This document shows positions 17,915 to 60,785 of a stretch of DNA of 64,000 nt, in pieces; positions within the stretch are counted from its first letter, which is position 1, and each line of letters starts with the position of its first letter. The stretch is taken from positions 65,084 to 129,083 of the forward strand of contig JBAZSE010000001.1 in the NCBI GenBank assembly GCA_041662565.1, in the 5' to 3' direction. A program made the translations under genes and the position numbers. Origin of the DNA: Patescibacteria group bacterium. Lineage in GTDB: Bacteria; Patescibacteriota; Patescibacteriia; UBA1558; UBA10009. The notes beneath the pieces were generated by a model that was not told the origin of the DNA, searched no databases, and saw only the letters and a program-made list of their open reading frames with translations.

Positions 17915-20509
17915 ATGCTGACTAAAATAGAAAATATAAAATTTTGGCAAATATCTGCGCCAGAAACAGCTAAGGTGTTAGAAACAAATATTAAGGATGG
18001 ACTATCTACTCAAGAAGTAAAAGAACGTCTTAATGTATTTGGCAAAAATACTTTTGAAACATCAAAAAAGACCAGTAAGATTAAAATTTTCTTTAGCCAG
18101 TTAAAAAGTCCCTTAATCCTTGTTCTTATTATTGCCAGTATTGTTACTCTTGTTATTTCTCATTACCGAGATGCTATTTTTATTTTTATTGCCGTCATGG
18201 TAAATTCAGTTTTAGGTTTTTGGCAAGAAAACAAGGCCGAAAACGCTCTGGCTCAGCTTAAAACGTATCTTAAACAAAGAGCTCGGGTAATACGAGAAGG
18301 TAAAGAAAGGGAAATACACGCCGAAGAAATTGTGCCGGGGGATATTATCAGGCTTGCTCAAGGCGATCGTGTGCCGGCAGATGCCAGGGTTATTTTTGTT
18401 AATGATTTTCAGATCGATGAATCTATTTTAACAGGTGAATCTTTGCCGGTTGCGAAATCAACGGATAGCGTGCCGGGATCCGCAAATATCGCTGATCAAA
18501 GTTCAATGATCTTTGCCGGCACTCTGGTTACACAAGGCGTTTGCGCGGCTATAGTTTGCCGTACTGATGCCTATACTGAATTGGGAAAAATTGCCTCTCT
18601 TATTGAAAAATCCGGAAACGAAAAAACGCCTTTACAAAAAGCTATCATCAAATTTAGCGCTTATCTTAGCGTTTTACTTGGGTTGCTTACGCTCGCGGTT
18701 TTTATTATAGGTATTATTTCTGGTAAACCTTGGCTGGAAATGTTTTTAACGGCCGTAGCCATTGCTGTTTCGGCTATACCGGAAGGGTTGCCCATTTCTA
18801 TGACGGTTGTTTTGGCAATTGGAGTAGAAAGAATGGCTAAACGCAAAGGAGTGGTTCGTAAGCTTATCGCGGCCGAAACATTAGGCGGAACAACTGTTAT
18901 TTTAACCGATAAAACCGGTACTTTAACTATGGCTAAAATGGTGCTTTCGCAAATTATTCCTTTTAAATCAACCAAAGAAATAGTACTTAACCACGCTCTT
19001 GCTAATGCTAGCGTGGTAGTTGAAAATCCAGAAGATAAACCGGAGTTATGGCGAATGAATGGTAGAATGATGGAAACAGTTTTGGTGCAATCGGCAGCGC
19101 TTCGAGGCATTCCATTTGCGGAGCTCACGGATAAATCCCAGGTGTTGCAAACCATACCGTTTAACGCGGTTCAAAAATTTTCCGTTTCTCTTATAAAAGA
19201 AGAAGCTAGTCATCTGATGGTTTTATTTGGCGCGCCTGATATTTTATTGGCTCAATCATCTTTAAACGAAAATGATAAAAAAATAATTTTTGAGAAAATT
19301 GATTTATTGGCTTTGTCGGGCGAACGGGTTTTAGGTTTGGCTACTAAAACAATTAAACATACGGAAAATTTTTCTTTGGCTAAAGATTTAGATTTTTCCG
19401 ATTTATCTTTTGACGGGCTGATAACTTTTAGAGACCCAATCAGGCCGGGGATTAAACGCGTTATTGATCAGGTAAAGCAAGCTGGAATAAAAACAGTAAT
19501 AATGACCGGCGATCATCAGGGAACGGCCGTGGCCGTGGCTAAAGAGGTGGGTTTAAGCGTAACCGACGTGTCTGTTCTTGATGCTGCCGAGCTAGCGACT
19601 TTGTCTGACCAATCTTTACGAGAGCGACTTTCGTCTTTAACAGTAATATCCCGAGTTACGCCTTTTGACAAAATAAGGATAGTAAAGGCATTTCAGGAAT
19701 TAGGTGAAATTGTCGCTATGACCGGAGATGGAGTTAATGATGCGCCCAGCATTAAACAGGCTAATGTGGGTATTGCCATGGGGTCAGGGACAGAGGTCTC
19801 TCAAAGCGTGGCCGATTTAGTGCTTTTGGATGATAATTTTGAAACAATAGTTGCGGCTATTGAAGAAGGCCGGCAAATATTTGGTAATATACGGAAAGTT
19901 TTGGTTTATTTGCTTTCAAGCGTTGCTGACGAGCTTATTTTAATTGGCGGGTCGATACTTGCAGGCGTACCATTACCTTTAAACGCTTTGCAAATTTTGT
20001 GGGTCAATTTTTTTACTGATAGTTTTCCGGCTATTGCCTTTGCTTTCGAAAGCGATAAAAATTATCTTTTGCAAAAACCATCAGAGAAAGGTATGGTATT
20101 ATTTAATCCACTTATGAAATTTTTAATTTTAGTCATCGGCGTTTCTACCAGTGCTTTGCTTTTTGCTATTTATTTAATTTTATTACGAATGGGTTTTGAT
20201 CCGGCTCTTGTGACAACATTTATTTTTGCGGCTTTTGGCACTTATACGCTTATACTGGCTTTTTCGGTTAAAAGTTTGGATAAAAGTATTTTTTCATATT
20301 CCTTATTCTCAAATAAATATCTTACTGGCGCGATTGCCCTGGGTTTAATTCTTATGGCAGGGGCAATTTATGTTCCTGCCTTGCAAACGCTTTTTAATAC
20401 CAGGGCTTTGCCTTTTGGCTGGGTGGTTGGCATTGCTTTAGTGAGTATTCTTAATCTTATATTAATAGAAGCGGCCAAGTGGATCTTTAGGCGATTTAAG
20501 AAAAAATAA
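17915..20509 (+). CDS. cation-transporting P-type ATPase (P2-type, Ca2+/Mg2+-like)
   Basis: Motifs DKTGTLT, TGDHQGTAVAVA and MTGDGVNDAPSIKQANVGIAMG, with 10 predicted TM helices. I place the start at the ATG at 17915 (M31 of the track ORF), because the upstream 30 codons lie in repeat A. Confidence 0.9.
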   Translation: MLTKIENIKFWQISAPETAKVLETNIKDGLSTQEVKERLNVFGKNTFETSKKTSKIKIFFSQLKSPLILVLIIASIVTLVISHYRDAIFIFIAVMVNSVLGFWQENKAENALAQLKTYLKQRARVIREGKEREIHAEEIVPGDIIRLAQGDRVPADARVIFVNDFQIDESILTGESLPVAKSTDSVPGSANIADQSSMIFAGTLVTQGVCAAIVCRTDAYTELGKIASLIEKSGNEKTPLQKAIIKFSAYLSVLLGLLTLAVFIIGIISGKPWLEMFLTAVAIAVSAIPEGLPISMTVVLAIGVERMAKRKGVVRKLIAAETLGGTTVILTDKTGTLTMAKMVLSQIIPFKSTKEIVLNHALANASVVVENPEDKPELWRMNGRMMETVLVQSAALRGIPFAELTDKSQVLQTIPFNAVQKFSVSLIKEEASHLMVLFGAPDILLAQSSLNENDKKIIFEKIDLLALSGERVLGLATKTIKHTENFSLAKDLDFSDLSFDGLITFRDPIRPGIKRVIDQVKQAGIKTVIMTGDHQGTAVAVAKEVGLSVTDVSVLDAAELATLSDQSLRERLSSLTVISRVTPFDKIRIVKAFQELGEIVAMTGDGVNDAPSIKQANVGIAMGSGTEVSQSVADLVLLDDNFETIVAAIEEGRQIFGNIRKVLVYLLSSVADELILIGGSILAGVPLPLNALQILWVNFFTDSFPAIAFAFESDKNYLLQKPSEKGMVLFNPLMKFLILVIGVSTSALLFAIYLILLRMGFDPALVTTFIFAAFGTYTLILAFSVKSLDKSIFSYSLFSNKYLTGAIALGLILMAGAIYVPALQTLFNTRALPFGWVVGIALVSILNLILIEAAKWIFRRFKKK

Positions 20510-45596: not shown

Positions 45597-46775
45597 ATGT
45601 TTAAAAAAAATATTTATTTGGATCACGCCGCAACAACTTATTTGGATCCCAGGGTAGAAAAAGCCATGCGGCCCTTTTGGTCAAAAAAATTTGGCAACCC
45701 CTCTTCTTTGTATTATTTGGGTCGAGAAGCCAAAGAGGCGATTAACACCGCCCGCCTTCAGGTTGCTCAAATTTTGGGTTGTGGCCCGGAAGAAATTATT
45801 TTTGAGGGTTCGGGCACCGAATCAATCAATCACGCTTTAATCGGCACGGCCTTGGCTAATCAAGCGCGGGGCAAGCACATTATTACCTCGGCCATTGAAC
45901 ACCATGCCGTTTTGCATGCCTGTCAATTTTTAGAAAGCCAAGGTTTTGAAGTAACTTATTTACCCTCTGATCATCAAGGTTTGGTAAATTTGGAAATGTT
46001 AACAGAAGCTATTCGTCCGGAAACTATTTTAGTTTCCATTATTTACGCCAACAACGAAATCGGCACAATTCAACCAATTCAAGAAATTTCCAAATCAATC
46101 AAATTAGCCAATCCGTTGGTTTTGTTTCATATGGATGCTTGTCAGGCCGCCGGCTATTTAAGTTTGAACGTTCAGGAATTAGGCGTTGATTTAATGAGTT
46201 TAAATGGCAGTAAAATTTACGGGCCAAAAGGCACTGGTGTGCTTTATGTTAAAAAAGGCGTGGCCATAATGCCAATTATTCATGGCGGAGAACAAGAAAA
46301 CAGCCAAAGAGCCGGTACCGAAAATGTGGCAGGTATTGTCGGGTTGGCTTGCGCCTTAAAGTTGGTTCAGCAGAATAAAGAAAAGGAATCAGCCCGTTTA
46401 TTAAAGTTGAGAGATAGGTTAATTGTCGGTTTGCTAAAAATGCCTAATGTTATTTTAAACGGGCACGCTATTAATCGCTTGCCGGGCAATGTTAACATAA
46501 CTGTTGCAGGCGTTTCCGGAGAAAAGCTGGTTTTAGAATTGGATAAATTGGGCATTGCTTGTTCTACCGGTTCTGCCTGCACTTCAGGGAGCGTTGACCC
46601 ATCGCATGTGATTATCGCTCTTGGCCAAAGTTACGAGGCCTCACGCGGATCATTAAGATTAACGCTGGGGCATGGCAATTCGGAAAAAGATATTGATTAT
46701 GTATTGCGAGTTTTACCTAAGCTGATAAAAAATATTAATTTAAATATTGATCAAAAAAAATATGAGGACAAATAA
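45597..46775 (+). CDS. cysteine desulfurase (class V aminotransferase, NifS/IscS-like)
   Basis: IYLDHAATT, the PLP-lysine region SLNGSKIYGPKG and the active-site region CSTGSACTSGS. Confidence 0.9.
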   Translation: MFKKNIYLDHAATTYLDPRVEKAMRPFWSKKFGNPSSLYYLGREAKEAINTARLQVAQILGCGPEEIIFEGSGTESINHALIGTALANQARGKHIITSAIEHHAVLHACQFLESQGFEVTYLPSDHQGLVNLEMLTEAIRPETILVSIIYANNEIGTIQPIQEISKSIKLANPLVLFHMDACQAAGYLSLNVQELGVDLMSLNGSKIYGPKGTGVLYVKKGVAIMPIIHGGEQENSQRAGTENVAGIVGLACALKLVQQNKEKESARLLKLRDRLIVGLLKMPNVILNGHAINRLPGNVNITVAGVSGEKLVLELDKLGIACSTGSACTSGSVDPSHVIIALGQSYEASRGSLRLTLGHGNSEKDIDYVLRVLPKLIKNINLNIDQKKYEDK

Positions 46776-47694
46776 AATTACTATTTTAGGAGCGGGCAGT
46801 GTTGGCTGCAGTACAGCTTTTAGTTTGATGCATCAAAAAGCTATCGGCGAAATTGCTATTATCGATTTAAACCAAAAAACACTAGAAGCCCAAGTGCATG
46901 ATTTGGCCGATGCCATTCCCGTTTTAGGCAAAGTTAAAGTTAAGGCAGGCACTTACGCAGATATTAAGGATTCACAAATCGTGGTGGTGGCTTGTGGTGC
47001 GGCTCAAGTATCCGGGGCGCAGTCGCGCTTGGATTTGGTTAGCATCAATGCCAAGATTATGAAAGAGATTGTGCCGAAAATTTTTAAGCAAAATCCCAAA
47101 GTTTTGTTAATCATGGTTACTAATCCGGTGGATGTGTTAACGCAAATTGCTATTAGTTTGTTTCCCGATAAAAAGAAGCAGATTTTTGGCACAGGCACGC
47201 TGTTGGATACGATGCGCTTAAAATATTTTTTGGCAAAATTTTTATCGGTTGATTCATCTACTGTTGATGCTTATATGGCCGGCGAGCATGGCGATAGTTC
47301 GGTTGCTTTTTGGAGCACGGCAAAAATTAACGGTAAAAAATTGGTTAATTTTTCCAAGCTTAATAATTTACAGCGCCAAAAAATAGATTTGGCTGTTAAA
47401 AAATCCGCTGCCGAAATTATTGCCGGCAAAGGCGCCACTTTTTACGGCATTGGCGCGGGCACTGCTTATTTAATTTCATGTTTACTCTCAGGCAAAAAAA
47501 CCACTTTGCCACTTAGCCACCTAATGAACGGGGAATACGGTTTAACGGATGTTTGTTTAAGTGTGCCAACCGTGATAGATAAATCCGGGATTGTTTCCAA
47601 GGTTATTTTGCCGATTTCCCCTGCCGAAAAACAGCTTTTGCACAGTTCGGCCGCAAAATTAAAAGAAGTTTTTAAGCAAGCTTTAAAGGTTTAA
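46762..47694 (+). CDS. ldh: L-lactate dehydrogenase
   Basis: ITILGAGSVG (NAD-binding), MVTNPVDVLT and the AGEHGDSSV signature. The start is placed at MRTNKITIL; the track ORF begins 15 nt earlier. Confidence 0.85.
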   Translation: MRTNKITILGAGSVGCSTAFSLMHQKAIGEIAIIDLNQKTLEAQVHDLADAIPVLGKVKVKAGTYADIKDSQIVVVACGAAQVSGAQSRLDLVSINAKIMKEIVPKIFKQNPKVLLIMVTNPVDVLTQIAISLFPDKKKQIFGTGTLLDTMRLKYFLAKFLSVDSSTVDAYMAGEHGDSSVAFWSTAKINGKKLVNFSKLNNLQRQKIDLAVKKSAAEIIAGKGATFYGIGAGTAYLISCLLSGKKTTLPLSHLMNGEYGLTDVCLSVPTVIDKSGIVSKVILPISPAEKQLLHSSAAKLKEVFKQALKV

Positions 47695-47770
47695 ATAACC
47701 GTCAACTATTTGATTTTGGCTAAGGTTGGGGCGGTTTTTATTTTATCCACAAGCAAAATAGAAAAATACC

Positions 47771-47789
47771 ATATCTTGTGTTATAATTT
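47771..47789 (+). promoter_or_regulatory. extended -10 promoter (TGTTATAAT) for the nrdJ leader, overlapped by an NrdR-box-like palindrome
   Basis: ..CTTGTGTTATAAT.. The 16-mer ATACCATATCTTGTGT (47766-47781) matches about 13 of 16 positions of the NrdR-box consensus acaCwAtATaTwGtgt as I recall it. Confidence 0.35.
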
Positions 47790-47916
47790 CTAATGGACTA
47801 CTAGATGTAGTAGTTATCCACTTCTGCCGTTTAACTAGCTTTTGGCTAATCGAGCGGCCAGGCGGTTTTGCTGGTTTATCGAACTTCTCTTAAAAACCAG
47901 CCTTTAAAAGGGTCTA

Positions 47917-48094
47917 TGAGATAGTTGTAAAACTGTTTTTACTGCAATTTTATATTTTTGGCTACGACTTCGTCAGATTTCGTAAAAATATTTTCACCGT
48001 AATGCTATTACGGCTCAAATATTTTTACTCATCTTCCTTGTCTCGCCTAAAAATCTGAAATTTCGTTTAAAAAAACAGTTTTACAACTATCTCA
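47917..48094. repeat. 178-bp element with perfect 24-bp terminal inverted repeats (MITE-like or long structured RNA) in the nrdJ 5' leader
   Basis: TGAGATAGTTGTAAAACTGTTTTT (47917-47940) is the exact reverse complement of AAAAACAGTTTTACAACTATCTCA (48071-48094). The 130-nt spacer has an internal CCGTAAT gct ATTACGG hairpin. Confidence 0.6.
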
Positions 48095-48172
48095 AACATA
48101 ACTAGTTTCTTAGTTATATTTTTTTCTCTCTAAATTCTTTAAAAAATTACCAAATTATAACCCCCAAAAACT

Positions 48173-51094
48173 ATGGCCAACCCCATGCCTGAAGTTGAAA
48201 ACAACTCCAAAGATCAAGTAACCGATTTTCCTTTTAGCGCTGAGCTAAAAGTTGATGGTGCATTTAATAGCCAAGAAGCCAATAAAGATAATGCTTCTTT
48301 TTATTTTAAAAAAACCGATTTAGCGGGCTTGGATTTTAAGCGCCGTTATACCAAGGCAGGGGCTCATCCTTACGAGGAAATAAATTGGCAACAGCGCGAT
48401 GCGGTAATTACCAGTGATAAAGGGGAAATTGTTTTTTCGCAAAAAGACGTGGAAGTGCCCAAGGGTTGGTCGCAAACCGCTACCAATATCGCCGTTTCTC
48501 ATTATTTTAGGGGCAGGATCGGTACCAGTGGGCGCGAAATAAGCGCACGTCAAATGATTGATCGGGTGGCTAAAACCATTACCCGCTGGGGCCAAGATCA
48601 GGGTTATTTTAAAACCGTAGAAGATGGCCAGATTTTTGAACATGAATTAACTTATATTTTAATCAACCAACACGCGGCTTTTAACAGCCCGGTTTGGTAC
48701 AATGTGGGCGTGGAAGAACATCCGCAATGCAGTGCTTGTTTTATCAATTCCGTCCAAGATGACATGCGTTCCATTTTAAATTTAGCCGTCACCGAAGGTA
48801 TGCTGTTTAAATACGGTTCCGGCACCGGCACCAATTTATCCATTTTGCGCTCCAGCAAAGAACAGCTGGCCAATTCCAATGGCAAGGCCTCGGGTCCTGT
48901 TTCTTTTATGAAGGGCTTTGACGCTTTTGCCGGTGTGATTAAATCGGGCGGTAAAACCCGCCGGGCGGCCAAAATGGTTATTTTGGATATTGAACACCCG
49001 GATATTGAAGAATTTATCAACTGCAAATCCAATGAAGAAAAAAAGGCCTGGGCCTTAATTGAAATGGGCTACGATGGCTCGTTAAACGGCCCGGCTTACG
49101 GTTCCATTTTTTTCCAAAACGCCAACAACAGCGTCCGCGTAACAGATGAATTTATGAGAGCGGTGGAAGAAAACGGCCAATGGCAAACCAAGTATGTTAA
49201 AACCAAAGAAGCGGCCGATACTTACCAAGCCAGGGATTTAATGAAGCAGATTGCCGAAGCCGCTTGGATTTGCGGCGATCCCGGTATGCAGTACGATACC
49301 ACCATTAACCGTTGGCATACCTGCCCTAATACCGATAGGATTTACGCTTCTAACCCTTGCTCCGAATACATGTTTTTAAACGATAGCGCTTGCAATTTGG
49401 CTTCCATTAATTTAATGAAATATAGGCAGGATAGCGGTGAGTTTGATGTGGAGGGTTTTAAACATACGGTGAGCATTATGTCTACGGCTATGGAAATTTT
49501 GGTGCCTAACTCCAGCTATCCCACCCCGGCAATTGAGCAGAATAGTTTGGACTACCGTCCTTTGGGCTTGGGTTACGCCAACTTGGGCGCTTTGTTAATG
49601 AGCAACGGCTTGGCTTATGATAGCGATTCCGGTCGCAATTTTACCGGCGCGGTTACCGCTTTACTGAACGGCTGGGCTTATTTGCAATCGGCTAAAATTG
49701 CCGGTGTTAAAGGAACCTTTAAAGGTTATGCCCCCAACCGCCAACCCATGTTGAATGTCATGAAAATGCACCGTGATGCTTCTTACAAAATCAAGGAAGA
49801 TGGAGTTTTTCCGCACTTAATGTCTTCAGCCAGGGATGCTTGGGATCAGGTTTGCGCACTTGGCGAAATTAATGGTTTTAGAAATGCCCAGGCAACGGTT
49901 TTGGCGCCAACCGGCACTATTGGCTTTTTAATGGATTGCGATACTACCGGCATTGAACCGGATATTGCTTTGGTTAAGTACAAGTGGCTGGTGGGCGGCG
50001 GCATGATGAAGATTGTAAATTCCACCGTGCCCTTGGCCCTTAAAACTTTGGGTTACAGCCCCGAGGATGTGGATAGCATTTTGGATTATATTGATAAAAA
50101 CGATACCATTGAAGGAGCGCCTAAATTACTGGACGAGCATTTATCGGTTTTTGATTGCGCTTTTAAAGCCAAAAAAGGTAAACGCTATATCCATTACATG
50201 GGCCATGTAAAAATGATGGGCGCCGCCCAACCATTTTTATCCGGTGCTATTTCCAAAACCGTTAACATGCCCGAAAACGCCACAGCCGAAGAAATTGCCG
50301 GCGTGTATTCGGAGGGTTGGAAGCTGGGGCTTAAGGCCATTGCCATTTACCGCGAAAATTCTAAACGCAGCCAACCCTTAACCACTTCACTAAAAGAAAT
50401 TTCTACCAAAGAATCTGCCGTCAAGGCCGAGGTCTTGCGCCCCAAGAGGCGCAAACTGCCCGATGAAAGAGCGGCTATTACCCATAAGTTTTCCATTGCC
50501 AATCATGAGGGCTTTATCACCGTTGGCTTGTACGAAGACGGTTTGCCGGGTGAACTGTTTATTACTATGTCCAAAGAGGGTAGTGTAATTTCCGGGTTAA
50601 TGGATTCGTTTGCCACTTCCATTTCCATTGGTTTGCAATATGGCGTGCCATTAAAGAGCTTGGTTAATAAATTCGTTCATACCCGTTTTGAACCGTCGGG
50701 CTTTACCAACAATCCCAACATCAGAATTGCCAAATCCATTGTTGATTATATTTTCCGCTGGTTGGCCTTAAAGTTTTTATCGGCCGAAGAATTAATGTAC
50801 GTAGGCATTAACGATATTGAAGTGGCCTTAAACGGCAATGGCAAAAGCCCGCTTGAGAAATTAACCAAAATGGCCGATGAGCAGGCCTTAAAGCATGATA
50901 AGCATGCCAATGAAGCTGAAGAGGATGTTGTTTATCAGCAAACAGCTTTGGATTTAAACAAAAATTTGGATGATAAAATGACCTTTGATACCCAATCCGA
51001 TGCGCCGGTTTGCGGCACTTGCGGTTCAATGATGATTCGTTCAGGCGCATGCTACAAGTGTATGAATTGCGGGGGTTCCAGCGGGTGCAGCTAG
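48173..51094 (+). CDS. nrdJ: ribonucleotide reductase, class II (adenosylcobalamin-dependent), with C-terminal zinc ribbon
   Basis: The RNR barrel motif is NPCSEYMF..SACNLASINL. It is a monomeric-size protein with no adjacent nrdB. The C-terminal CGTCGS..CYKCMNCG is typical of NrdJ. Confidence 0.9.
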   Translation: MANPMPEVENNSKDQVTDFPFSAELKVDGAFNSQEANKDNASFYFKKTDLAGLDFKRRYTKAGAHPYEEINWQQRDAVITSDKGEIVFSQKDVEVPKGWSQTATNIAVSHYFRGRIGTSGREISARQMIDRVAKTITRWGQDQGYFKTVEDGQIFEHELTYILINQHAAFNSPVWYNVGVEEHPQCSACFINSVQDDMRSILNLAVTEGMLFKYGSGTGTNLSILRSSKEQLANSNGKASGPVSFMKGFDAFAGVIKSGGKTRRAAKMVILDIEHPDIEEFINCKSNEEKKAWALIEMGYDGSLNGPAYGSIFFQNANNSVRVTDEFMRAVEENGQWQTKYVKTKEAADTYQARDLMKQIAEAAWICGDPGMQYDTTINRWHTCPNTDRIYASNPCSEYMFLNDSACNLASINLMKYRQDSGEFDVEGFKHTVSIMSTAMEILVPNSSYPTPAIEQNSLDYRPLGLGYANLGALLMSNGLAYDSDSGRNFTGAVTALLNGWAYLQSAKIAGVKGTFKGYAPNRQPMLNVMKMHRDASYKIKEDGVFPHLMSSARDAWDQVCALGEINGFRNAQATVLAPTGTIGFLMDCDTTGIEPDIALVKYKWLVGGGMMKIVNSTVPLALKTLGYSPEDVDSILDYIDKNDTIEGAPKLLDEHLSVFDCAFKAKKGKRYIHYMGHVKMMGAAQPFLSGAISKTVNMPENATAEEIAGVYSEGWKLGLKAIAIYRENSKRSQPLTTSLKEISTKESAVKAEVLRPKRRKLPDERAAITHKFSIANHEGFITVGLYEDGLPGELFITMSKEGSVISGLMDSFATSISIGLQYGVPLKSLVNKFVHTRFEPSGFTNNPNIRIAKSIVDYIFRWLALKFLSAEELMYVGINDIEVALNGNGKSPLEKLTKMADEQALKHDKHANEAEEDVVYQQTALDLNKNLDDKMTFDTQSDAPVCGTCGSMMIRSGACYKCMNCGGSSGCS

Positions 51095-51345
51095 AAGAAT
51101 TTGACAATGTTAAGAAAAGGTTTAAGATAATAAAGCATTTTGAAAATAATTTTTAGTCAGGCAACAAGGTGAGCTATCAATCGATGGCAATTCCTTGGCA
51201 GTCGCGCTACTGTAATCCGCCGTAGCTCGTGTTAACGAGCGTAGGCGGAAAGCCAGAAAACTGATTGAAATACATAAGAACCGATTTTCTCTTCGCGTAC
51301 CAAAGAGAAGCGGGCTTGCCTAAATCAGTTGAATTTGATTTTTAG

Positions 51346-51408: not shown

Positions 51409-53196
51409 ATGAAACAAAAAAAAATGTTCTTGGTAATCGCGCTTATTACCAGTTTAATTATTCCCTCTGGTTTGATCAAAGCCGAAGTTAACCAGGCAAC
51501 CATAAATTATTTGCAAAACGCCAGCCAAAGCGCTTGGATTACCCAGGCTCTAAAAGCCGCGGGTAGCAATAATTTAAATTTGGATTATTTGGCAGATTTT
51601 GAACCGGCTAACGCCAATGATGCGGCCAAGGCAGTTTTGGCGATTATTGCCGGCGGTGGCAATCCTTACAGTTATCATGGCGATAATTACGTTGGTGGGT
51701 TGTTAAGCTACGCGCAAAACAATCAGATCGGTTCTACTTCTTTGATTAATGATGATTTTTGGGGCATTTTGGCGCTAAGGGCTGCAGGTGAGCCAGTTGA
51801 TTCGGCCATTATTGTCGGTAGTAAAAATTTTATCCTAGCCGCGCAAAATAATGATGGCGGTTGGAGCTGGGCGCCTGATTCCGAAAGCGATACCAATGAT
51901 ACCGCCGCCTCTATTATGGCTTTACTGGAGGCAGGGCTTAATAACGATTCCCAAGATATTCAACAAGCCATTAATTATCTGCGAGAAGCGCAAAATGAAG
52001 ATGGCGGTTTTCCTTTTTCTTCCGGCGAATCGGATTCCGGTTCCGATGCTTGGGTAATTGCCGCTTTAAATAAATTGGGCATTAGCCCCGAAACTTGGAG
52101 TGTTGGCAATAACAATCCAATTGCCCATTTGGGGTCATTAATGCTTAATGACGGATCTTTTAAATGGCTTTCTTCGGATAATCAGGGCAACTTAACTATG
52201 ACGGCTTTTGCGGCCGTAGCTTTAGCGGGTAAATTTTTCCCCGTGGCAACATATCAACCCCCGGCCGATCAGAATCTTCATCATTTAAGAATTGAAGGTG
52301 CCACCAGCACTATTTGTAATGCCCAGGTGGAAGGACAAACAGCGCAACAAGTTTTGGAAAACGGCGCCGAAATTTGCAACTACACTTACCATATTCAAAC
52401 TACCGATTGGGGCCCTTATTTGGATAAAATAAATAATGATCAAGCCGAGGGCCAAAACGGTTGGTTGTATCGGGTTAATTGGTTAAGCGCCCAAGTAGGG
52501 ATGGCCAATTATAATTTAGCAGCCGGAGATGAGGTGTTGTTCTATTTTGCCTATTGGGAAGATCAGCCCTTGCGCCTTTCTTTAAGTGCCTCGCAAGCTA
52601 ACCCCGGAGATAATATCACGGCCACGGTGGAATATTTTAATGAACAATCATGGCTGCCGGCAGTTGGCACATTGGTGCTGGTTGCTGATCGCGAATACCA
52701 AACCAACAATCAGGGGCAAGCGATTTTTTCTGCACCCCAAGATGGCAGTTATGTTGTTTATGCCCAAGGCGATCATAAAGTTCGTTCACCCAAACAGGTT
52801 TTAATTGTGGGACAAGGTAGCGCCAATGGTGTGGTTTTAAACGTGGATGTTGCCAATAACGCGCCTGTAGAGCAAGAAGAAGAAAACGCCGGCGCTTTGG
52901 TTTTTAGAGTTAATGTTGATCATTTGGATTTTGGCAGTTTGCGCCCGGGCGGACAGTTAAACCGCAGTTTAACCATTACCAACCAAAGCGCCGATAATAT
53001 GTATTTGGAAGGTATAGTTTCGGGCGATGCTTTGTTTGAAAATAATGTGATGCTGGATGATCAAATTTGGGAAAATTACAATAAAACCTTAGCCAGAAAT
53101 GAAGCCGTAAATATTGGAGTTAAATTAATCGTGCCGCAAAATTACAGTAATGGCCATTATAGCGCCAATTTGGTTTTATGGGGTTCGGCCCGTTAA
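51409..53196 (+). CDS. secreted protein: prenyltransferase-like alpha-toroid repeats plus DUF4430-like beta domain (transcobalamin-like architecture) plus extra beta domains
   Basis: After a signal peptide, the Q-x-x-DGG(W/F) repeats read AQNNDGGWSWAPD, AQNEDGGFPFSSG and LNDGSFKWL. The segment QQVLENGAEIC..YLDKINNDQAEGQNGWLYRVNWLSAQVGMANYNLAAGDEVLFYF is homologous to the stand-alone protein 54441..54890. Confidence 0.6.
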   Translation: MKQKKMFLVIALITSLIIPSGLIKAEVNQATINYLQNASQSAWITQALKAAGSNNLNLDYLADFEPANANDAAKAVLAIIAGGGNPYSYHGDNYVGGLLSYAQNNQIGSTSLINDDFWGILALRAAGEPVDSAIIVGSKNFILAAQNNDGGWSWAPDSESDTNDTAASIMALLEAGLNNDSQDIQQAINYLREAQNEDGGFPFSSGESDSGSDAWVIAALNKLGISPETWSVGNNNPIAHLGSLMLNDGSFKWLSSDNQGNLTMTAFAAVALAGKFFPVATYQPPADQNLHHLRIEGATSTICNAQVEGQTAQQVLENGAEICNYTYHIQTTDWGPYLDKINNDQAEGQNGWLYRVNWLSAQVGMANYNLAAGDEVLFYFAYWEDQPLRLSLSASQANPGDNITATVEYFNEQSWLPAVGTLVLVADREYQTNNQGQAIFSAPQDGSYVVYAQGDHKVRSPKQVLIVGQGSANGVVLNVDVANNAPVEQEEENAGALVFRVNVDHLDFGSLRPGGQLNRSLTITNQSADNMYLEGIVSGDALFENNVMLDDQIWENYNKTLARNEAVNIGVKLIVPQNYSNGHYSANLVLWGSAR

Positions 53197-53279
53197 GAAA
53201 ATATATGCTGACATATAAACTCCTCGGCTCGGAAAGGCAAAAGCAAGAGCTTTCGCCTTTCTCTCGCTCTACGTCGTTT

Positions 53280-53825
53280 ATGAAAAAAATTTTACTACTA
53301 TTAGTTATTCCCGCTTTTATTTTAGGCATTGCCCAAATTGTTTTAGCGGCCGGTGTGGCTGTTAATCCGGATAAGCTTAATTTTGATTTAGCTGCCGGGC
53401 AAGAACAAACCAAAAGCGTGGTGGTGGAAAACATCTCCGATCGGCCGGTGCTGTATAATATTTATGTAGATGAATTAGCTGATCAAATTTATTTGGCGCC
53501 GGCAAATTTTAGGTTGGAGGTTGGGCAAAAAAGGCAGGTTAAAGTAAAAGCTAACCCGCGCCATAAAGGTCTGTTTGCCACCAATTTATCCATTGTGGTA
53601 ACAGATTTGGACAGGCGAACTTTTAATGTTTCAACCGGTGTTAAGGTGCCGATTACTTTACAAGTTGGCCCTGCCGTAGGATTTGTTTTGCCTCAAGTTA
53701 TCGGTAAAATTTCTTTTTTACTAATCCCTTTGTTAAGCGCGGTTATTATTATTTTGGGCATAATGTTAAAAAAGAAAAAACATTGGTGGCAAGCAATAAT
53801 CAGTAAATTTAAAAAACATGGTTAA
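53280..53825 (+). CDS. cell-surface protein with signal peptide and C-terminal TM anchor
   Basis: MKKILLLLVIPAFILGIAQIVLA signal peptide, a beta-rich middle region and a C-terminal hydrophobic anchor with a KKKK stop-transfer. The start is placed at the internal Met of the track ORF. Confidence 0.45.
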   Translation: MKKILLLLVIPAFILGIAQIVLAAGVAVNPDKLNFDLAAGQEQTKSVVVENISDRPVLYNIYVDELADQIYLAPANFRLEVGQKRQVKVKANPRHKGLFATNLSIVVTDLDRRTFNVSTGVKVPITLQVGPAVGFVLPQVIGKISFLLIPLLSAVIIILGIMLKKKKHWWQAIISKFKKHG

Positions 53826-54402
53826 CAATTCAGTAAAACCAGCTCAAGTATCTAGCGAACTTAGTCGAGGCAGAATCCAGGTGTATACCGGGCATGGCAA
53901 GGGTAAAACAACTGCTTCCTTGGGTTTGGCAATAAGGGCTTTGGGTCGGAATAAAAAAGTTGCCATTATTTATTTTGATAAAGGCGGTGATCATTACGGC
54001 GAAAGAAAAATTTTGGATAAGCTTTCGGGCGATTTTCTTCAATATCATGTTACCGGTGCCGAGCGGTTTGATCCTGTTGCTAAAACTTTCCGTTTTGGCG
54101 TAGAAGAGACAGATAAGCAGGAAGCCAATAGGGGTTTGCAGCTGGTTGAGGATTTTTTTAAGCAAGATAACTTGGATTTGCTTATTTTGGATGAAATTAA
54201 TTCCACAATCGCCTTGGGTATGCTAAAATTGGATGATGTTTTGCCGGTTTTAGCAAACAAACCAACCACTTTAGAATTAATTTTAACCGGCCGTGATGCG
54301 CCCCAAGCCATTTTGGATGTAGCCGATCTGGTTACGGAAATGAAATTGGTTAAACATTATTTTTACGATGGCCAGGAAGCCAGAGAGGGAATTGAGTATT
54401 AA
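53818..54402 (+). CDS. cobA: cob(I)alamin/corrinoid adenosyltransferase (CobA/BtuR/CobO family)
   Basis: The P-loop VYTGHGKGKTTASLGLAIRALG and LLILDEINS match the BtuR/CobA family. Confidence 0.85.
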   Translation: MVNNSVKPAQVSSELSRGRIQVYTGHGKGKTTASLGLAIRALGRNKKVAIIYFDKGGDHYGERKILDKLSGDFLQYHVTGAERFDPVAKTFRFGVEETDKQEANRGLQLVEDFFKQDNLDLLILDEINSTIALGMLKLDDVLPVLANKPTTLELILTGRDAPQAILDVADLVTEMKLVKHYFYDGQEAREGIEY

Positions 54403-54440
54403 TTTTTTAATTATTAATTTATAATGTTAATATAAAGTGT

Positions 54441-54890
54441 ATGAAAAATATTAAATTTATTGTTATAGCCGTTATTTTTTTCGCCGCAGGTTTTTTATTG
54501 GGCCAAAGTTATCAATTGCCCGAAAATTTTAAGCTGGTTTCCGATCAAACCCAAAATCAGGAAACGACGCTTAAGCCCCAAGTTACTTATCTGTTAAAAT
54601 TTTCTCCTGTTGAAGCAACAGAATTTCAGCAAGTGGATATTGCAGCCCCTCAAACCGTTTTGGCTGTTCTTGAAAAATTAACAACCGCCAATACTCTGGA
54701 ATTGATTACCAAAGATTATCCATCAATGGGAGTTTTGGTGGAAAAAATCGGCGATAAAACCAATGGCCAGGATAATAAATATTGGCAGTATTATGTTAAT
54801 GGCGAAAAGCCACAAATAGGCGCTGATCGTTTTAATTTAAGCGGCGGGGAACTGGTGGAGTGGAAATTTGAAGAATTTATCAGTGAATAA
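54441..54890 (+). CDS. membrane-anchored DUF4430-like (transcobalamin beta-domain-like) protein
   Basis: An N-terminal TM, then ..TVLAVLEKLTTA..LVEKIGDKTNGQDNKYWQYYVNGEKPQIGADRFNLSGGELVEWKF, which shares the W-x-Y-x-VN..G..GDEV.F.Y-type signature with the C-terminal domain of 51409..53196. Confidence 0.6.
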   Translation: MKNIKFIVIAVIFFAAGFLLGQSYQLPENFKLVSDQTQNQETTLKPQVTYLLKFSPVEATEFQQVDIAAPQTVLAVLEKLTTANTLELITKDYPSMGVLVEKIGDKTNGQDNKYWQYYVNGEKPQIGADRFNLSGGELVEWKFEEFISE

Positions 54891-54917
54891 GCTATAAACA
54901 AGTAATTTAGAATCATT

Positions 54918-55451
54918 ATGAAAAAAATCCATGTTATCATCTTAATTGTAGTTCTGGCAGCTCTGGGAATTTATCTGCGCCTTTCTCCGCATCCGGCTAA
55001 TTTTGCCCCTATTGGCGCCATTGCCTTGTTTGCCGGGGTTTATTTGCCCAAAAAGTGGGCAATTATTTTGCCCTTAGGCATAATGCTGTTAACTGATTTG
55101 TTTTTGGGTTTTTACGAATGGCAAACCATGTTAACGGTGTATGGTTGTTTAGCCCTGACTTTTTGGGTAGGTGTTAAAATAAAAAACCATAAGAATTTTT
55201 TAACCGTAGCTTCAGCCACAATGGCTACGTCCATTATTTTTTTTATGGCCACCAATTTTGCCGTTTGGGCTTTTTCCGATTGGTATCCTCATAACGCAAC
55301 CGGCCTGGTTTTAAATTATTATCTGGCTATTCCTTTTTTTAGGAACAGCTTGCTTTCGGATTTGTTTTTTACCGGATTTTTATTTGGCAGTTTTGAGATG
55401 GCTCGTTATTTAGCGGTATCTATTCGGCAAAAAAGCAAGTTTATGGTATAA
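54918..55451 (+). CDS. small 6-TM membrane protein (possible vitamin-uptake substrate-binding component, ECF S-component-like size and topology)
   Basis: ORF of 177 aa with about 6 hydrophobic helices, including PANFAPIGAIALFAGVYL. It lies in the corrinoid locus. No family is assigned. Confidence 0.4.
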   Translation: MKKIHVIILIVVLAALGIYLRLSPHPANFAPIGAIALFAGVYLPKKWAIILPLGIMLLTDLFLGFYEWQTMLTVYGCLALTFWVGVKIKNHKNFLTVASATMATSIIFFMATNFAVWAFSDWYPHNATGLVLNYYLAIPFFRNSLLSDLFFTGFLFGSFEMARYLAVSIRQKSKFMV

Positions 55452-58331: not shown

Positions 58332-60785
58332 ATGACAACATTTTACAATCATCGTGAAATAGAAAAAAAATGGCAGGCCAAATGGGTGGCTGATTCTTTG
58401 TATTCTGCCCAAGATAATTGTAACCCCTCGGCAAGCTCGGGGTACGCTTCGCGTAAAAAGTATATTTTGGATATGTTTCCTTATCCTTCGGGTGATGGCT
58501 TGCATGTTGGCCATCCCGAATCCTATACCGCTACCGACATTATGGCTCGTTACTACCGTTTGCTCGGGTTTAATGTTATGCACCCCATGGGTTGGGATTC
58601 ATTTGGTTTGCCGGCAGAAAATTTTGCCATCAAATCCGGGGTTCATCCGCAAACCACTACCGCCAAAGCCATTGCTAATTTTAGAAAGCAAATTCAAAAT
58701 TTGGGTTTTTCTTATGATTGGGAAAGGGAAGTTAATACTTCTGCGCCGGATTATTACCGTTGGACCCAATGGTTGTTTTTAAAGCTTTACGAAAAAGGGT
58801 TGGCTTACAAAAAGAAAGCACCGGTTAACTGGTGCGATTCGTGTAAAACCGTGCTGGCTAATGAACAGGTGGTAGATGGGGCTTGCGAAAGGTGCTCAAA
58901 TGCAGTAATGCAAAAGGATTTAGAGCAATGGTTTTTTAAAGTCACTCAATATGCCGAAGAATTATTAAGCGAGATTGATAAGATGGATTGGTCCGATGCT
59001 TTAAAGGCAGCGCAACGTAATTGGATCGGTAAAAGCGAGGGAGCCCTGCTCAAGTTCCAAATAACAAGTGGCAATCCACAAAAAAGTTCCAAGTTCCAAG
59101 TTCCAAGTTCCAATTCTGAAATTGAAGTGTTTACTACTCGGCCAGACACTTTGTTTGGGGCGACTTATTTGGTATTGGCACCAGAAAATACCCTGGTAGA
59201 AAAGTTAAAAGTTAAAAGTCAAAACTTAAAAGAAATTGATGCGTATATTAAGCAATCGTCTTTAAAAAGCAATTTGGAAAGAACGGGTTTGGCAAAAGAA
59301 AAAACCGGTGTAGAGCTTAAGGGTGTTATGGCTGTTAATCCGGGCAATAATCAAGAAATGCCTGTTTGGATTGCCGATTATGTTTTAGGCAGTTACGGCA
59401 CGGGAGCTATCATGGCGGTACCGGCCCATGATGAACGCGATTTTGAATTTGCCAAGAAATTTAAGCTGCCGATTGTTAAAGTTATTGAGAACGCTGATTT
59501 CCCGGAATGTTTTTCTGGCAATGGCAAATTGATTAATTCTAAGGATTTTACGGGATTAAATTCCGAAGAAGCCAAGGATAAAATTATCAAATCAGTCGGC
59601 GGGCAAAAAAAGATTCAATACAAAATCCGCGATTGGCTTATTTCGCGCCAGCGCTATTGGGGCGCGCCGATTCCTATTATTTATTGTGAATCTTGCGGCC
59701 TGCAAGCAGTATTGGAAAAAGATTTACCAGTGTTATTGCCAGAAGATGTTGATTTTAGGCCAACAGGCGAATCGCCTTTAGCCAGATCTCAATCATTTCA
59801 TAATGTTCTATGCCCAAAGTGCGGCCAAGCGGCCAGGCGCGAATCCGATACCATGGATACTTTTGTTTGCTCATCTTGGTATTTTTTAAGGTATTGCGAT
59901 CCTAAAAATACCACAGAGGCCTTTGGTAAAGATAAAGTTAAATATTGGCTGCCGGTTGATTTGTATATTGGCGGCATGGAGCACGCGGTTGGCCATTTGA
60001 TTTATTCGCGTTTTATAGTTAAAGCCCTGCGGGATATGGGTTACGTAAATTTTGACGAACCGTTTTTAAAAATCCGCAATCAGGGAATTATTTTAGCCGA
60101 AGACGGCCGAAAAATGAGCAAACGCTGGCATAATGTGATTAATCCCGATGAAGTGGTGGAAGAATACGGCGCCGATAGCATGCGCTTGTACGAAATGTTT
60201 ATGGGTCCGCTGGAAGATATGAAGCCGTGGAGCAGTAAGGGGATTATTGGGGTGCGTAGGTTTTTAGAGAAAGTATATAAATTTGTTGTTGCTTCGAAAA
60301 ATTTTGCGCCTAATAATAATCAGGCAATAGAAAAATCACTCCATAAAACCATAAAAAAGGTTTCCGAAGATATTGAAGCAATTCATTTTAACACAGCCAT
60401 CAGCGCCATGATGATTTTTATTAATGACGCCACTGCTAATCCCAATGGTGTTAGCAAAGAAGCCATAGATAAATTTTTAATTATCTTATCGCCGTTCGCT
60501 CCTCATTTGGCGGAAGAATTATGGTCTGTTTTAGGGCATAATGATTCTGTTACCCGGCAAAAATGGCCAAGCTATGATGCCAAGGCGGTTGTTGATGATG
60601 AAGTAACCATAGCCATACAGATCAATGGAAAATTGCGCGACACTTTGTTAATTGCCAGAGGCATATCGGAAAAAGAACTTAGAACTCAGGTGGAAAATTT
60701 GCCGAATATTAAAAAACATCTGGCCGGTCAGGAAATTAAAAAATTTATCTATATCCAGGATAAGTTGGTTAATATCGTTATTTAA
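58332..60785 (+). CDS. leuS: leucine--tRNA ligase
   Basis: HIGH-type motif PYPSGDGLHVGHP, a CP1 editing domain and the KMSKR variant of KMSKS. Confidence 0.95.
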   Translation: MTTFYNHREIEKKWQAKWVADSLYSAQDNCNPSASSGYASRKKYILDMFPYPSGDGLHVGHPESYTATDIMARYYRLLGFNVMHPMGWDSFGLPAENFAIKSGVHPQTTTAKAIANFRKQIQNLGFSYDWEREVNTSAPDYYRWTQWLFLKLYEKGLAYKKKAPVNWCDSCKTVLANEQVVDGACERCSNAVMQKDLEQWFFKVTQYAEELLSEIDKMDWSDALKAAQRNWIGKSEGALLKFQITSGNPQKSSKFQVPSSNSEIEVFTTRPDTLFGATYLVLAPENTLVEKLKVKSQNLKEIDAYIKQSSLKSNLERTGLAKEKTGVELKGVMAVNPGNNQEMPVWIADYVLGSYGTGAIMAVPAHDERDFEFAKKFKLPIVKVIENADFPECFSGNGKLINSKDFTGLNSEEAKDKIIKSVGGQKKIQYKIRDWLISRQRYWGAPIPIIYCESCGLQAVLEKDLPVLLPEDVDFRPTGESPLARSQSFHNVLCPKCGQAARRESDTMDTFVCSSWYFLRYCDPKNTTEAFGKDKVKYWLPVDLYIGGMEHAVGHLIYSRFIVKALRDMGYVNFDEPFLKIRNQGIILAEDGRKMSKRWHNVINPDEVVEEYGADSMRLYEMFMGPLEDMKPWSSKGIIGVRRFLEKVYKFVVASKNFAPNNNQAIEKSLHKTIKKVSEDIEAIHFNTAISAMMIFINDATANPNGVSKEAIDKFLIILSPFAPHLAEELWSVLGHNDSVTRQKWPSYDAKAVVDDEVTIAIQINGKLRDTLLIARGISEKELRTQVENLPNIKKHLAGQEIKKFIYIQDKLVNIVI

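Follow-up and report, generated by a model that had tools for sequence, protein, structure and literature searches.

A lineage-specific 178-bp foldback insertion in the nrdJ leader of a Patescibacteria genome, downstream of a predicted NrdR operator

Why does the leader of a ribonucleotide reductase gene in a Patescibacteria genome contain a long and perfect inverted repeat, and does this structure belong to the control of the gene or did it arrive there by insertion? The gene in question, nrdJ, encodes a class II ribonucleotide reductase (RNR) and lies in a 64-kb stretch of an 809-kb metagenomic contig (ENA ERZ27249449), referred to below as the window, where a 478-bp spacer separates it from an upstream lactate/malate dehydrogenase gene (ldh, 46747-47694). 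Within this spacer the repeat delimits a 178-bp self-complementary (foldback) element. [quoted passage not shown] For the whole account, which combines the NrdR-controlled leader, the insertion and the mobile-element origin, we estimate a probability of roughly 0.6, and the insertion and operator parts taken alone command much greater confidence.

A foldback element at a site that is empty in relatives

The terminal arms of the element (Table 1; terminal sequence TGAGATAG...) are spaced 130 nt apart and form the longest and best inverted repeat of the window. With up to three mismatches allowed, the 24-mer is found at these two places alone in 64 kb, and none is expected from 100 shuffles, which bears out the judgement of an earlier note on this sequence that a perfect 24-bp repeat around a 130-nt spacer lies far beyond chance. 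The palindromic character extends inward from the arms. The inner stem CCGTAAT-gct-ATTACGG that the same note described is present at 47997-48013, within a longer pair of 22-nt arms, and the 130-nt interior is palindromic by itself when the terminal arms are excluded (left-right complementarity z = 6.5; minimum free energy z = -5.3). The whole 178 nt is predicted to fold as one hairpin (-62.2 kcal/mol; z = -12.4), with an overall self-complementarity of 75% that is made up of perfect 24-bp ends and a degenerate middle. When the full 5′ untranslated region (UTR) is folded, the element pairs with itself with a probability of ~1 and a conserved hairpin of the host leader still forms alongside it. 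There is no open reading frame (ORF) of at least 20 aa inside the element, and a promoter scan identified no + strand promoter inside it and no outward promoter at its ends. The other long inverted repeats of the window, at 19173-19373 and 60465-60752, are situated within ORFs, and their folds are no more stable, or hardly more stable, than those of shuffled sequence; no comparable foldback occurs in ~70 kb of related genomes.

The status of the element as an insertion follows from a comparison with the corresponding nrdJ loci in eight Komeilibacteria-like Patescibacteria genomes (NrdJ identity to the window in brackets): L002 (85%), L003 (83%), L004 (78%), L092 (77%), L093 (79%), L094 (76%), L097 (73%) and L102 (70%). 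These loci are syntenic with the window: a gene for a dehydrogenase or a lactamase-fold protein precedes nrdJ, and genes for a DUF4430 protein and BtuR follow it. The element is missing at the orthologous site in all eight leaders. The window reads AAAAGGGTC-TA-[178 bp]-AACA-TAACTAG where L002 and L003 read AAAAGGGTC-AAAAAG-TAACTAG, and in the remaining relatives both landmarks recur, separated by a short A-rich spacer. Excising exactly 47917-48094 yields the 6-nt GGGTC-N6-TAACTAG spacing of L002 and L003. The insertion site is thus the A-run of a conserved leader module, between its GGGTC motif and its hairpin and 3 nt before the latter. Because both of the closest NrdJ relatives have the empty site, a single gain in the lineage of the window is more parsimonious than repeated precise loss. 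The presence/absence contrast is one between species, two assemblies of the same strain being identical, and the insertion can only be dated to some time after the split from the nearest genome compared (85% NrdJ identity).

The nrdJ promoter and the conserved leader

The region that precedes the insertion reads as an nrdJ promoter with a canonical tandem NrdR operator. Published NrdR sites comprise two partially palindromic 16-bp boxes in which C4, A6, A8, T9, T11 and G13 are highly conserved (PMC13584703); the boxes are spaced by 15-16 bp, and sites with 14-17-bp spacers are bound well (PMC12051234). In the window the linker between the boxes is 16 bp and starts with the -10 hexamer TATAAT, and the paired pattern has one site in the 64 kb compared with 0.06 expected from Markov-simulated sequence. 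The pair is present in all eight relatives with each of the twelve conserved positions and a linker of 16-17 bp (9/9 leaders when the window is included), and a -10 hexamer (TATAAT, TACAAT, TATACT or TATAAA) directly follows box 1 in 9/9 leaders; the leader around this conserved operator varies in length from 174 to 412 nt. The extended -10 promoter near 47782 and the NrdR-box-like palindrome at it, both of which the earlier note had proposed, agree with the promoter scan (TAGAAA-17-TATAAT with TG) and with all six conserved positions of the published box definition. The second palindrome that it listed is real as well and is box 2 of the tandem operator, at a position ~11 nt to the left of the one it gave.

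Transcription would start near 47794, and bound NrdR would span about -28 to +20 relative to that position. The operator brackets the extended -10 and the predicted start, and the dATP/ATP-loaded NrdR tetramer would exclude RNA polymerase from it. The operators of S. coelicolor nrdRJ, E. coli nrdHIEF and L. monocytogenes nrdDG contain the same two 16-bp boxes with six conserved positions, and in known NrdR operators, as here, the box centres lie about three helical turns apart and overlap the core promoter of an RNR gene. The window differs from these systems in its host, which belongs to the Patescibacteria (candidate phyla radiation, CPR), in an NrdJ without an ATP-cone and in that no cognate nrdR gene was seen in the sequence covered. 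The sequence surveyed from the source genome amounts to 72 kb (the 64-kb window and 8.2 kb past its right end, ~9% of the genome), and in this reachable part neither tblastn with an E. coli NrdR query nor a motif scan found nrdR, a result that counts against NrdR control. The same query gave no tblastn match in the related loci. Only two ORFs, both encoding long proteins, matched a Zn-ribbon motif: nrdJ, in its C-terminal region, and an ORF assigned by Pfam to leucyl-tRNA synthetase, neither of which is related to NrdR. No ATP-cone gene lies within ±10 kb of a more distant CPR nrdJ, and in the literature searched we found no paper linking NrdR with Patescibacteria. The strict conservation of the operator is indirect evidence that a repressor exists in the clade.

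A perfect DnaA box lies 7 nt upstream of the -35 hexamer and is the sole occurrence in 64 kb on both strands. The box is perfect at the same relative position in six of the eight relatives, and a seventh has it with one mismatch. DnaA is known to control nrdAB in E. coli, and such control has been proposed for B. subtilis and Caulobacter as well (PMC8203912). E. coli nrdAB likewise has a DnaA consensus box just upstream of an RNR promoter; it has three such boxes, whereas the window has one, in front of a class II RNR in another phylum, and binding here is a prediction. The conserved box suggests that in this CPR clade DnaA acts on the expression of RNR, and both NrdR and DnaA would bind at the nrdJ promoter.

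Promoter and operator would in this way form a new member of a well-described system and extend the canonical tandem NrdR operator, and probably the control of deoxynucleoside triphosphate (dNTP) supply through a DnaA box, to Komeilibacteria-like Patescibacteria with ~0.8-Mb genomes; the locus as a whole is mostly known biology plus an orphan insertion. Since its NrdJ is without an ATP-cone, the domain with which the enzyme itself would sense dATP, NrdR, a protein with a Zn-ribbon and an ATP-cone, may provide the main feedback on dNTP synthesis by sensing dATP and acting on transcription.

Downstream of box 2 a lineage-specific stretch is followed by a conserved module that consists, in order, of AAAAGGGTC, a stretch rich in A, a hairpin, seven or eight T residues and CTCTCT or CGCT. 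The first motif reads AAAAGGGTC in L002, L003 and L004, AAAGGGTC in L093, GGGTC in L094 and GGTC in L092. The hairpin is conserved in seven relatives with a 7-10-bp stem of almost pure A-T, and pairing survives changes on both sides: the stem ATAACTAG/CTTAGTTAT of the window (48098-48117) corresponds to TTAACTAG/CTAGTTAA in L092, TTAACTAA/TTAGTTAA in L094 and GTAACTAAAT/ATTTAGTTAC in L093. The complete module (47906-47914 and 48098-48134 in the window) is present in L002, L003, L004, L092, L093 and L094, and in weaker form in L097 and L102.

In appearance the hairpin at 48098-48125 looks like a weak intrinsic terminator or attenuator. It contains at most one G-C pair, constructs of the hairpin plus its flanks fold to -7 to -14 kcal/mol, and a terminator scan that required at least three G-C pairs did not call it. 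Typical intrinsic terminators of this genome (6776-6817, 44127-44168 and 56817-56859) consist of an A-run, a stem and a T-run and are bidirectional in form; their short G/C cores range from CCC/GGG to CCCCC/GGGGG, and by this local standard the hairpin of the nrdJ leader falls far short. Conceivably the module of the nine leaders, with its GGGUC, A-run, hairpin, U-run and CUCUCU, is an attenuator-type leader of class II RNR in this clade that has not been described before, a proposal that we regard as speculative. Rfam models assigned no family to the leaders, either in a scan of the window at gathering thresholds or when the leader and seven related loci were scanned permissively, and no conserved small ORF that might encode a leader peptide was present in them. 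Plant miRNA-precursor models that matched 47600-48300 at E <= 10 were discarded as models that fit any long hairpin (18-22 bits against gathering scores of 94-249). A likeness of six in seven positions between part of the terminal repeat (TAGTTGT/ACAACTA) and the leader hairpin (TAGTTAT/ATAACTA) was considered no closer than chance would allow.

Table 1. Positions of the predicted control sites, the foldback element and nrdJ in the 64-kb window
Feature	Position	Strand	Sequence or description	Basis
DnaA box	47743..47751	+	TTATCCACA, perfect, 7 nt upstream of the -35 hexamer	Consensus per PMC8203912
Sigma-70-type promoter (predicted)	47759..47787	+	-35 TAGAAA, 17-nt spacer, extended -10 TGT-TATAAT (-10 at 47782-47787)	Promoter scan, 10/12 matches, TG present
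NrdR box 1 (predicted)	47766..47781	.	ATACCATATCTTGTGT	C4, A6, A8, T9, T11 and G13 all present; kept in 8/8 relatives
NrdR box 2 (predicted)	47798..47813	.	CTACTAGATGTAGTAG, core of the second palindrome ACTACTAGATGTAGTAGT (47797-47814)	6/6 positions
Leader motif	47906..47914	+	AAAAGGGTC, directly left of the insertion site	Conserved
Foldback insertion	47917..48094	.	178 bp, self-complementary, TG...CA termini, 29.8% GC, no ORF	Inverted-repeat, folding and ORF analyses
Left terminal arm	47917..47940	+	TGAGATAGTTGTAAAACTGTTTTT, 24 nt	100% complementary to right arm
Central hairpin of the element	47982..48028 (47982-48003 / 48007-48028)	+	22-nt arms, 86% complementary	Contains CCGTAAT-gct-ATTACGG
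Right terminal arm	48071..48094	+	24 nt, exact reverse complement of left arm	Inverted-repeat analysis
Leader hairpin	48098..48131	+	ATAACTAG-tttc-TTAGTTAT, then A, T7 run, CTCTCT	Begins 3 nt right of the insertion
nrdJ	48173..51094	+	Class II adenosylcobalamin-dependent RNR, 973 aa, without ATP-cone	Pfam PF08471, PF02867, PF12637

Origin and possible role of the element

Several properties of the element are those of a MITE: perfect terminal inverted repeats (TIRs) of 24 nt, a length of 178 bp, no coding capacity, and presence or absence at orthologous sites, eight of which are empty. Its TG...CA termini are typical of the substrates of DDE transposases. Mobility itself is deduced from these features, and a series of negative results weighs against it. 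No second copy was found in the window, with the 24-mer at three mismatches or by blastn of the element, and none in the 8.2 kb past the right end of the window or in ~70 kb of related genomes. Among 185,579 species-representative genomes the 18-mer GAGATAGTTGTAAAACTG gave only 15 single-arm matches and no copy, and these matches, 18-21 nt long and in unrelated phyla, are about the number expected by chance. In the JGI metagenomes the 18-mer TGAGATAGTTGTAAAACT gave 44 single-arm matches with no second arm and no similarity to the interior (20-nt matches seemed to be in excess, but the surplus was due to redundant contigs whose contexts were unrelated and mostly G+C-rich), in IMG/VR a 16-mer gave 27 single-arm matches and no copy, and plasmids and phages searched by blastn contained nothing that matched the element; the scans of the genome, metagenome and viral collections needed exact 16-18-mers and diverged copies would escape them. 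No direct repeat of 1-8 bp that would represent a target-site duplication fits any boundary tried (GGGTCTA / element / AACATAA), the 64-kb window has no transposase gene, and no paired TIR match that would identify a parent insertion sequence (IS) was found in the window or in the genome, metagenome or viral collections scanned. Two suggestions of the earlier note are affected. Its MITE-like insertion stands as an insertion, on the evidence of the empty site in eight relatives, and is no more than a putative MITE, since a second copy, a target-site duplication and a parent IS were all sought and not found in the sequence and collections covered; further copies, for which it proposed to look, turned up neither in 72 kb of the genome nor in the collections scanned.

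The closest known counterparts are the Correia elements of Neisseria (CREE/NEMIS), ERIC, RUP and the Rickettsia palindromic elements, which are likewise ~100-200 bp long and non-coding with terminal inverted repeats of ~25 bp. Like Correia-type elements, the element described here lies between a promoter and a gene, is probably co-transcribed and can fold into a long hairpin. It differs from them in that no promoter is created at its ends, and in number, these families being highly repeated in each genome whereas a single copy was found here. A TA target is duplicated by Correia elements, and the present element shows no duplication. Nothing in the collections searched resembles it in sequence. 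In appearance and presumed action the insertion resembles a foldback MITE, but it cannot be filed in any family, being without sequence relatives, duplication or copies. It could perhaps be the first-seen member of an undescribed foldback mobile family of CPR/Patescibacteria that makes no target-site duplication, or else a newly recruited hairpin of RNase III type, and we consider either a doubtful proposition. If further genomic copies exist, small non-autonomous mobile DNA will have been documented in a streamlined CPR genome, and if there are none the element is an orphan palindrome; neither outcome shifts current understanding much.

The explanation that competes most seriously with a mobile origin, while still being an unlikely one, is that the palindrome is a one-off product of replication or repair, generated by template switching, by a snap-back inverted duplication or by capture of foreign DNA at a break. 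Such a palindrome would have arisen in the A-rich tract beside the leader hairpin and been fixed neutrally. The single copy wherever searched and the missing target-site duplication are what this explanation predicts; the palindrome runs throughout the element and not merely at its ends, and the site, in an A/T-run 3 nt from a conserved hairpin, is a slippage-prone context. However, neither half of the element matches elsewhere in the 64-kb window, which leaves such an event with no local template, and perfect 24-bp ends around a degenerate middle resemble the terminal repeats of mobile elements and not a uniform inverted duplication; the TG...CA termini described above weigh the same way. These features lead us to prefer the non-autonomous mobile element.

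The nrdJ spacer would function as a conventional RNR control region, composed of a DnaA box, an NrdR-bracketed promoter and a leader of ~200 nt with an AU-rich hairpin and a U-run, into which in this lineage alone the 178-bp foldback has been inserted. The only promoter-like + strand site upstream of nrdJ is the putatively NrdR-controlled one, with none in or after the element. Because the element lies downstream of this sole predicted promoter and carries no outward promoter, it is likely to be transcribed together with nrdJ and would then fold on itself into a very stable hairpin. Self-pairing would bring the ends of the insert together and leave the geometry of the host leader intact, and the insertion has touched neither promoter nor operator, neither conserved hairpin nor start codon, which may explain why the insertion has been tolerated; from the predicted folds, the self-pairing insert would be structurally neutral for the host RNA. 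A perfect duplex of 24 bp is long enough for RNase III and could alter the processing or stability of the mRNA. The Correia elements offer a precedent, being co-transcribed foldback repeats that RNase III is reported to bind and to cleave or protect (PMC2649163).

A different proposal is that the hairpin has been selected as a cis-regulatory RNA for nrdJ, serving for instance as an RNase III processing site, a stabilizer, or a translational or ligand-responsive switch, and perhaps recruited after insertion. It sits in the 5′ UTR of a probably essential gene, its folding is predicted with very high confidence, and its arms are free of mismatches where the interior has many, a pattern that could reflect selection on the duplex. 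A recent insertion explains perfect arms equally well, though, and the element is absent from 8/8 relatives although these otherwise keep the leader. No Rfam family matches it, and it has no homologues from which covariation could provide evidence. We therefore think a selected regulatory role quite improbable. That every relative lacks the element speaks against a conserved role of this kind, including the RNase III substrate or translational control element that the earlier note had suggested. Were a recruited RNase III-type hairpin to be the case, it would add a post-transcriptional layer to NrdR/DnaA control of what is possibly the main or only RNR. In any event the locus offers a natural experiment, with a very stable 178-nt hairpin in the leader of a probably essential gene and eight empty-site relatives to compare.

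Two further explanations deny the insertion itself, and both are highly improbable. If the element were ancestral to the nrdJ leader of the clade and precisely lost in the relatives, several independent base-precise deletions would be required on both sides of the lineage of the window, in L002/L003 (83-85% NrdJ identity), in five more lineages (73-79%) and in L102 (70%), and the NrdJ identities already suggest that this lineage nests inside element-free relatives. An artefact such as a chimeric or foldback mis-join is conceivable in that the source is a metagenome assembly, but both flanks of the element align colinearly with those of the relatives, foldbacks created by assembly are as a rule perfect palindromes and sit at the ends of contigs whereas this one is imperfect and internal to the 809-kb contig, and a second assembly of the same strain made with another pipeline (L101, Logan SRR6484324) is 100% identical over 4441 bp with the element included and has the same 478-bp spacer base for base, although possibly from the same reads.

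The nrdJ product and the cobalamin-related genes downstream

The nrdJ product contains the Pfam domains Ribonuc_red_2_N, Ribonuc_red_lgC and TSCPD, and its best homologues in a protein search are labelled Patescibacteria or Candidatus Komeilibacteria. The ATP-cone is missing from the NrdJ proteins of this clade down to ~70% identity, and more distant Patescibacteria matches (~63-67% identity) mostly have one (PF03477). Two in-frame ATGs lie four codons apart at the start of the gene (MANPM..., window 48173-48187); the identical NrdJ of an NCBI metagenome-assembled genome is annotated from the second, as 969 aa versus 973 aa. None of the nine leaders compared has a Shine-Dalgarno sequence before either ATG.

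The nrdJ leader gave no credible match to a cobalamin riboswitch or to another Rfam family even at E <= 10, in agreement with the earlier note, which had looked for B12-riboswitch boxes there and seen none, and the leaders of the relatives were negative too. A sub-threshold match to an adenosylcobalamin riboswitch is located just past the nrdJ stop codon, at 51138-51316 on the + strand (29.4 bits, the gathering score being 50; E = 0.0017); its core, CGCUACUGU, is B12-box-like. Weak matches occupy the same position in five relatives (L002, 6068-6258; L004, 6752-6914; L092, 4395-4549; L093, 4429-4600; L094, 4398-4590). The placement of the weak match downstream of nrdJ and before a B12-salvage cluster, and not in the leader, sets this locus apart from RNR-associated cobalamin riboswitches, and the B12 riboswitch of the locus appears to control B12 capture and not nrdJ. 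The probable salvage cluster adjoins nrdJ at 51409-55451. It comprises a 595-aa prenyltransferase-like and DUF4430 protein, a 215-aa protein without a Pfam match, a BtuR/CobO corrinoid adenosyltransferase (53818-54402), a second DUF4430 protein (54441-54890) and a DUF6580 protein (54918-55451), and the order of these genes is the same in L102 and in a further related locus, L103.

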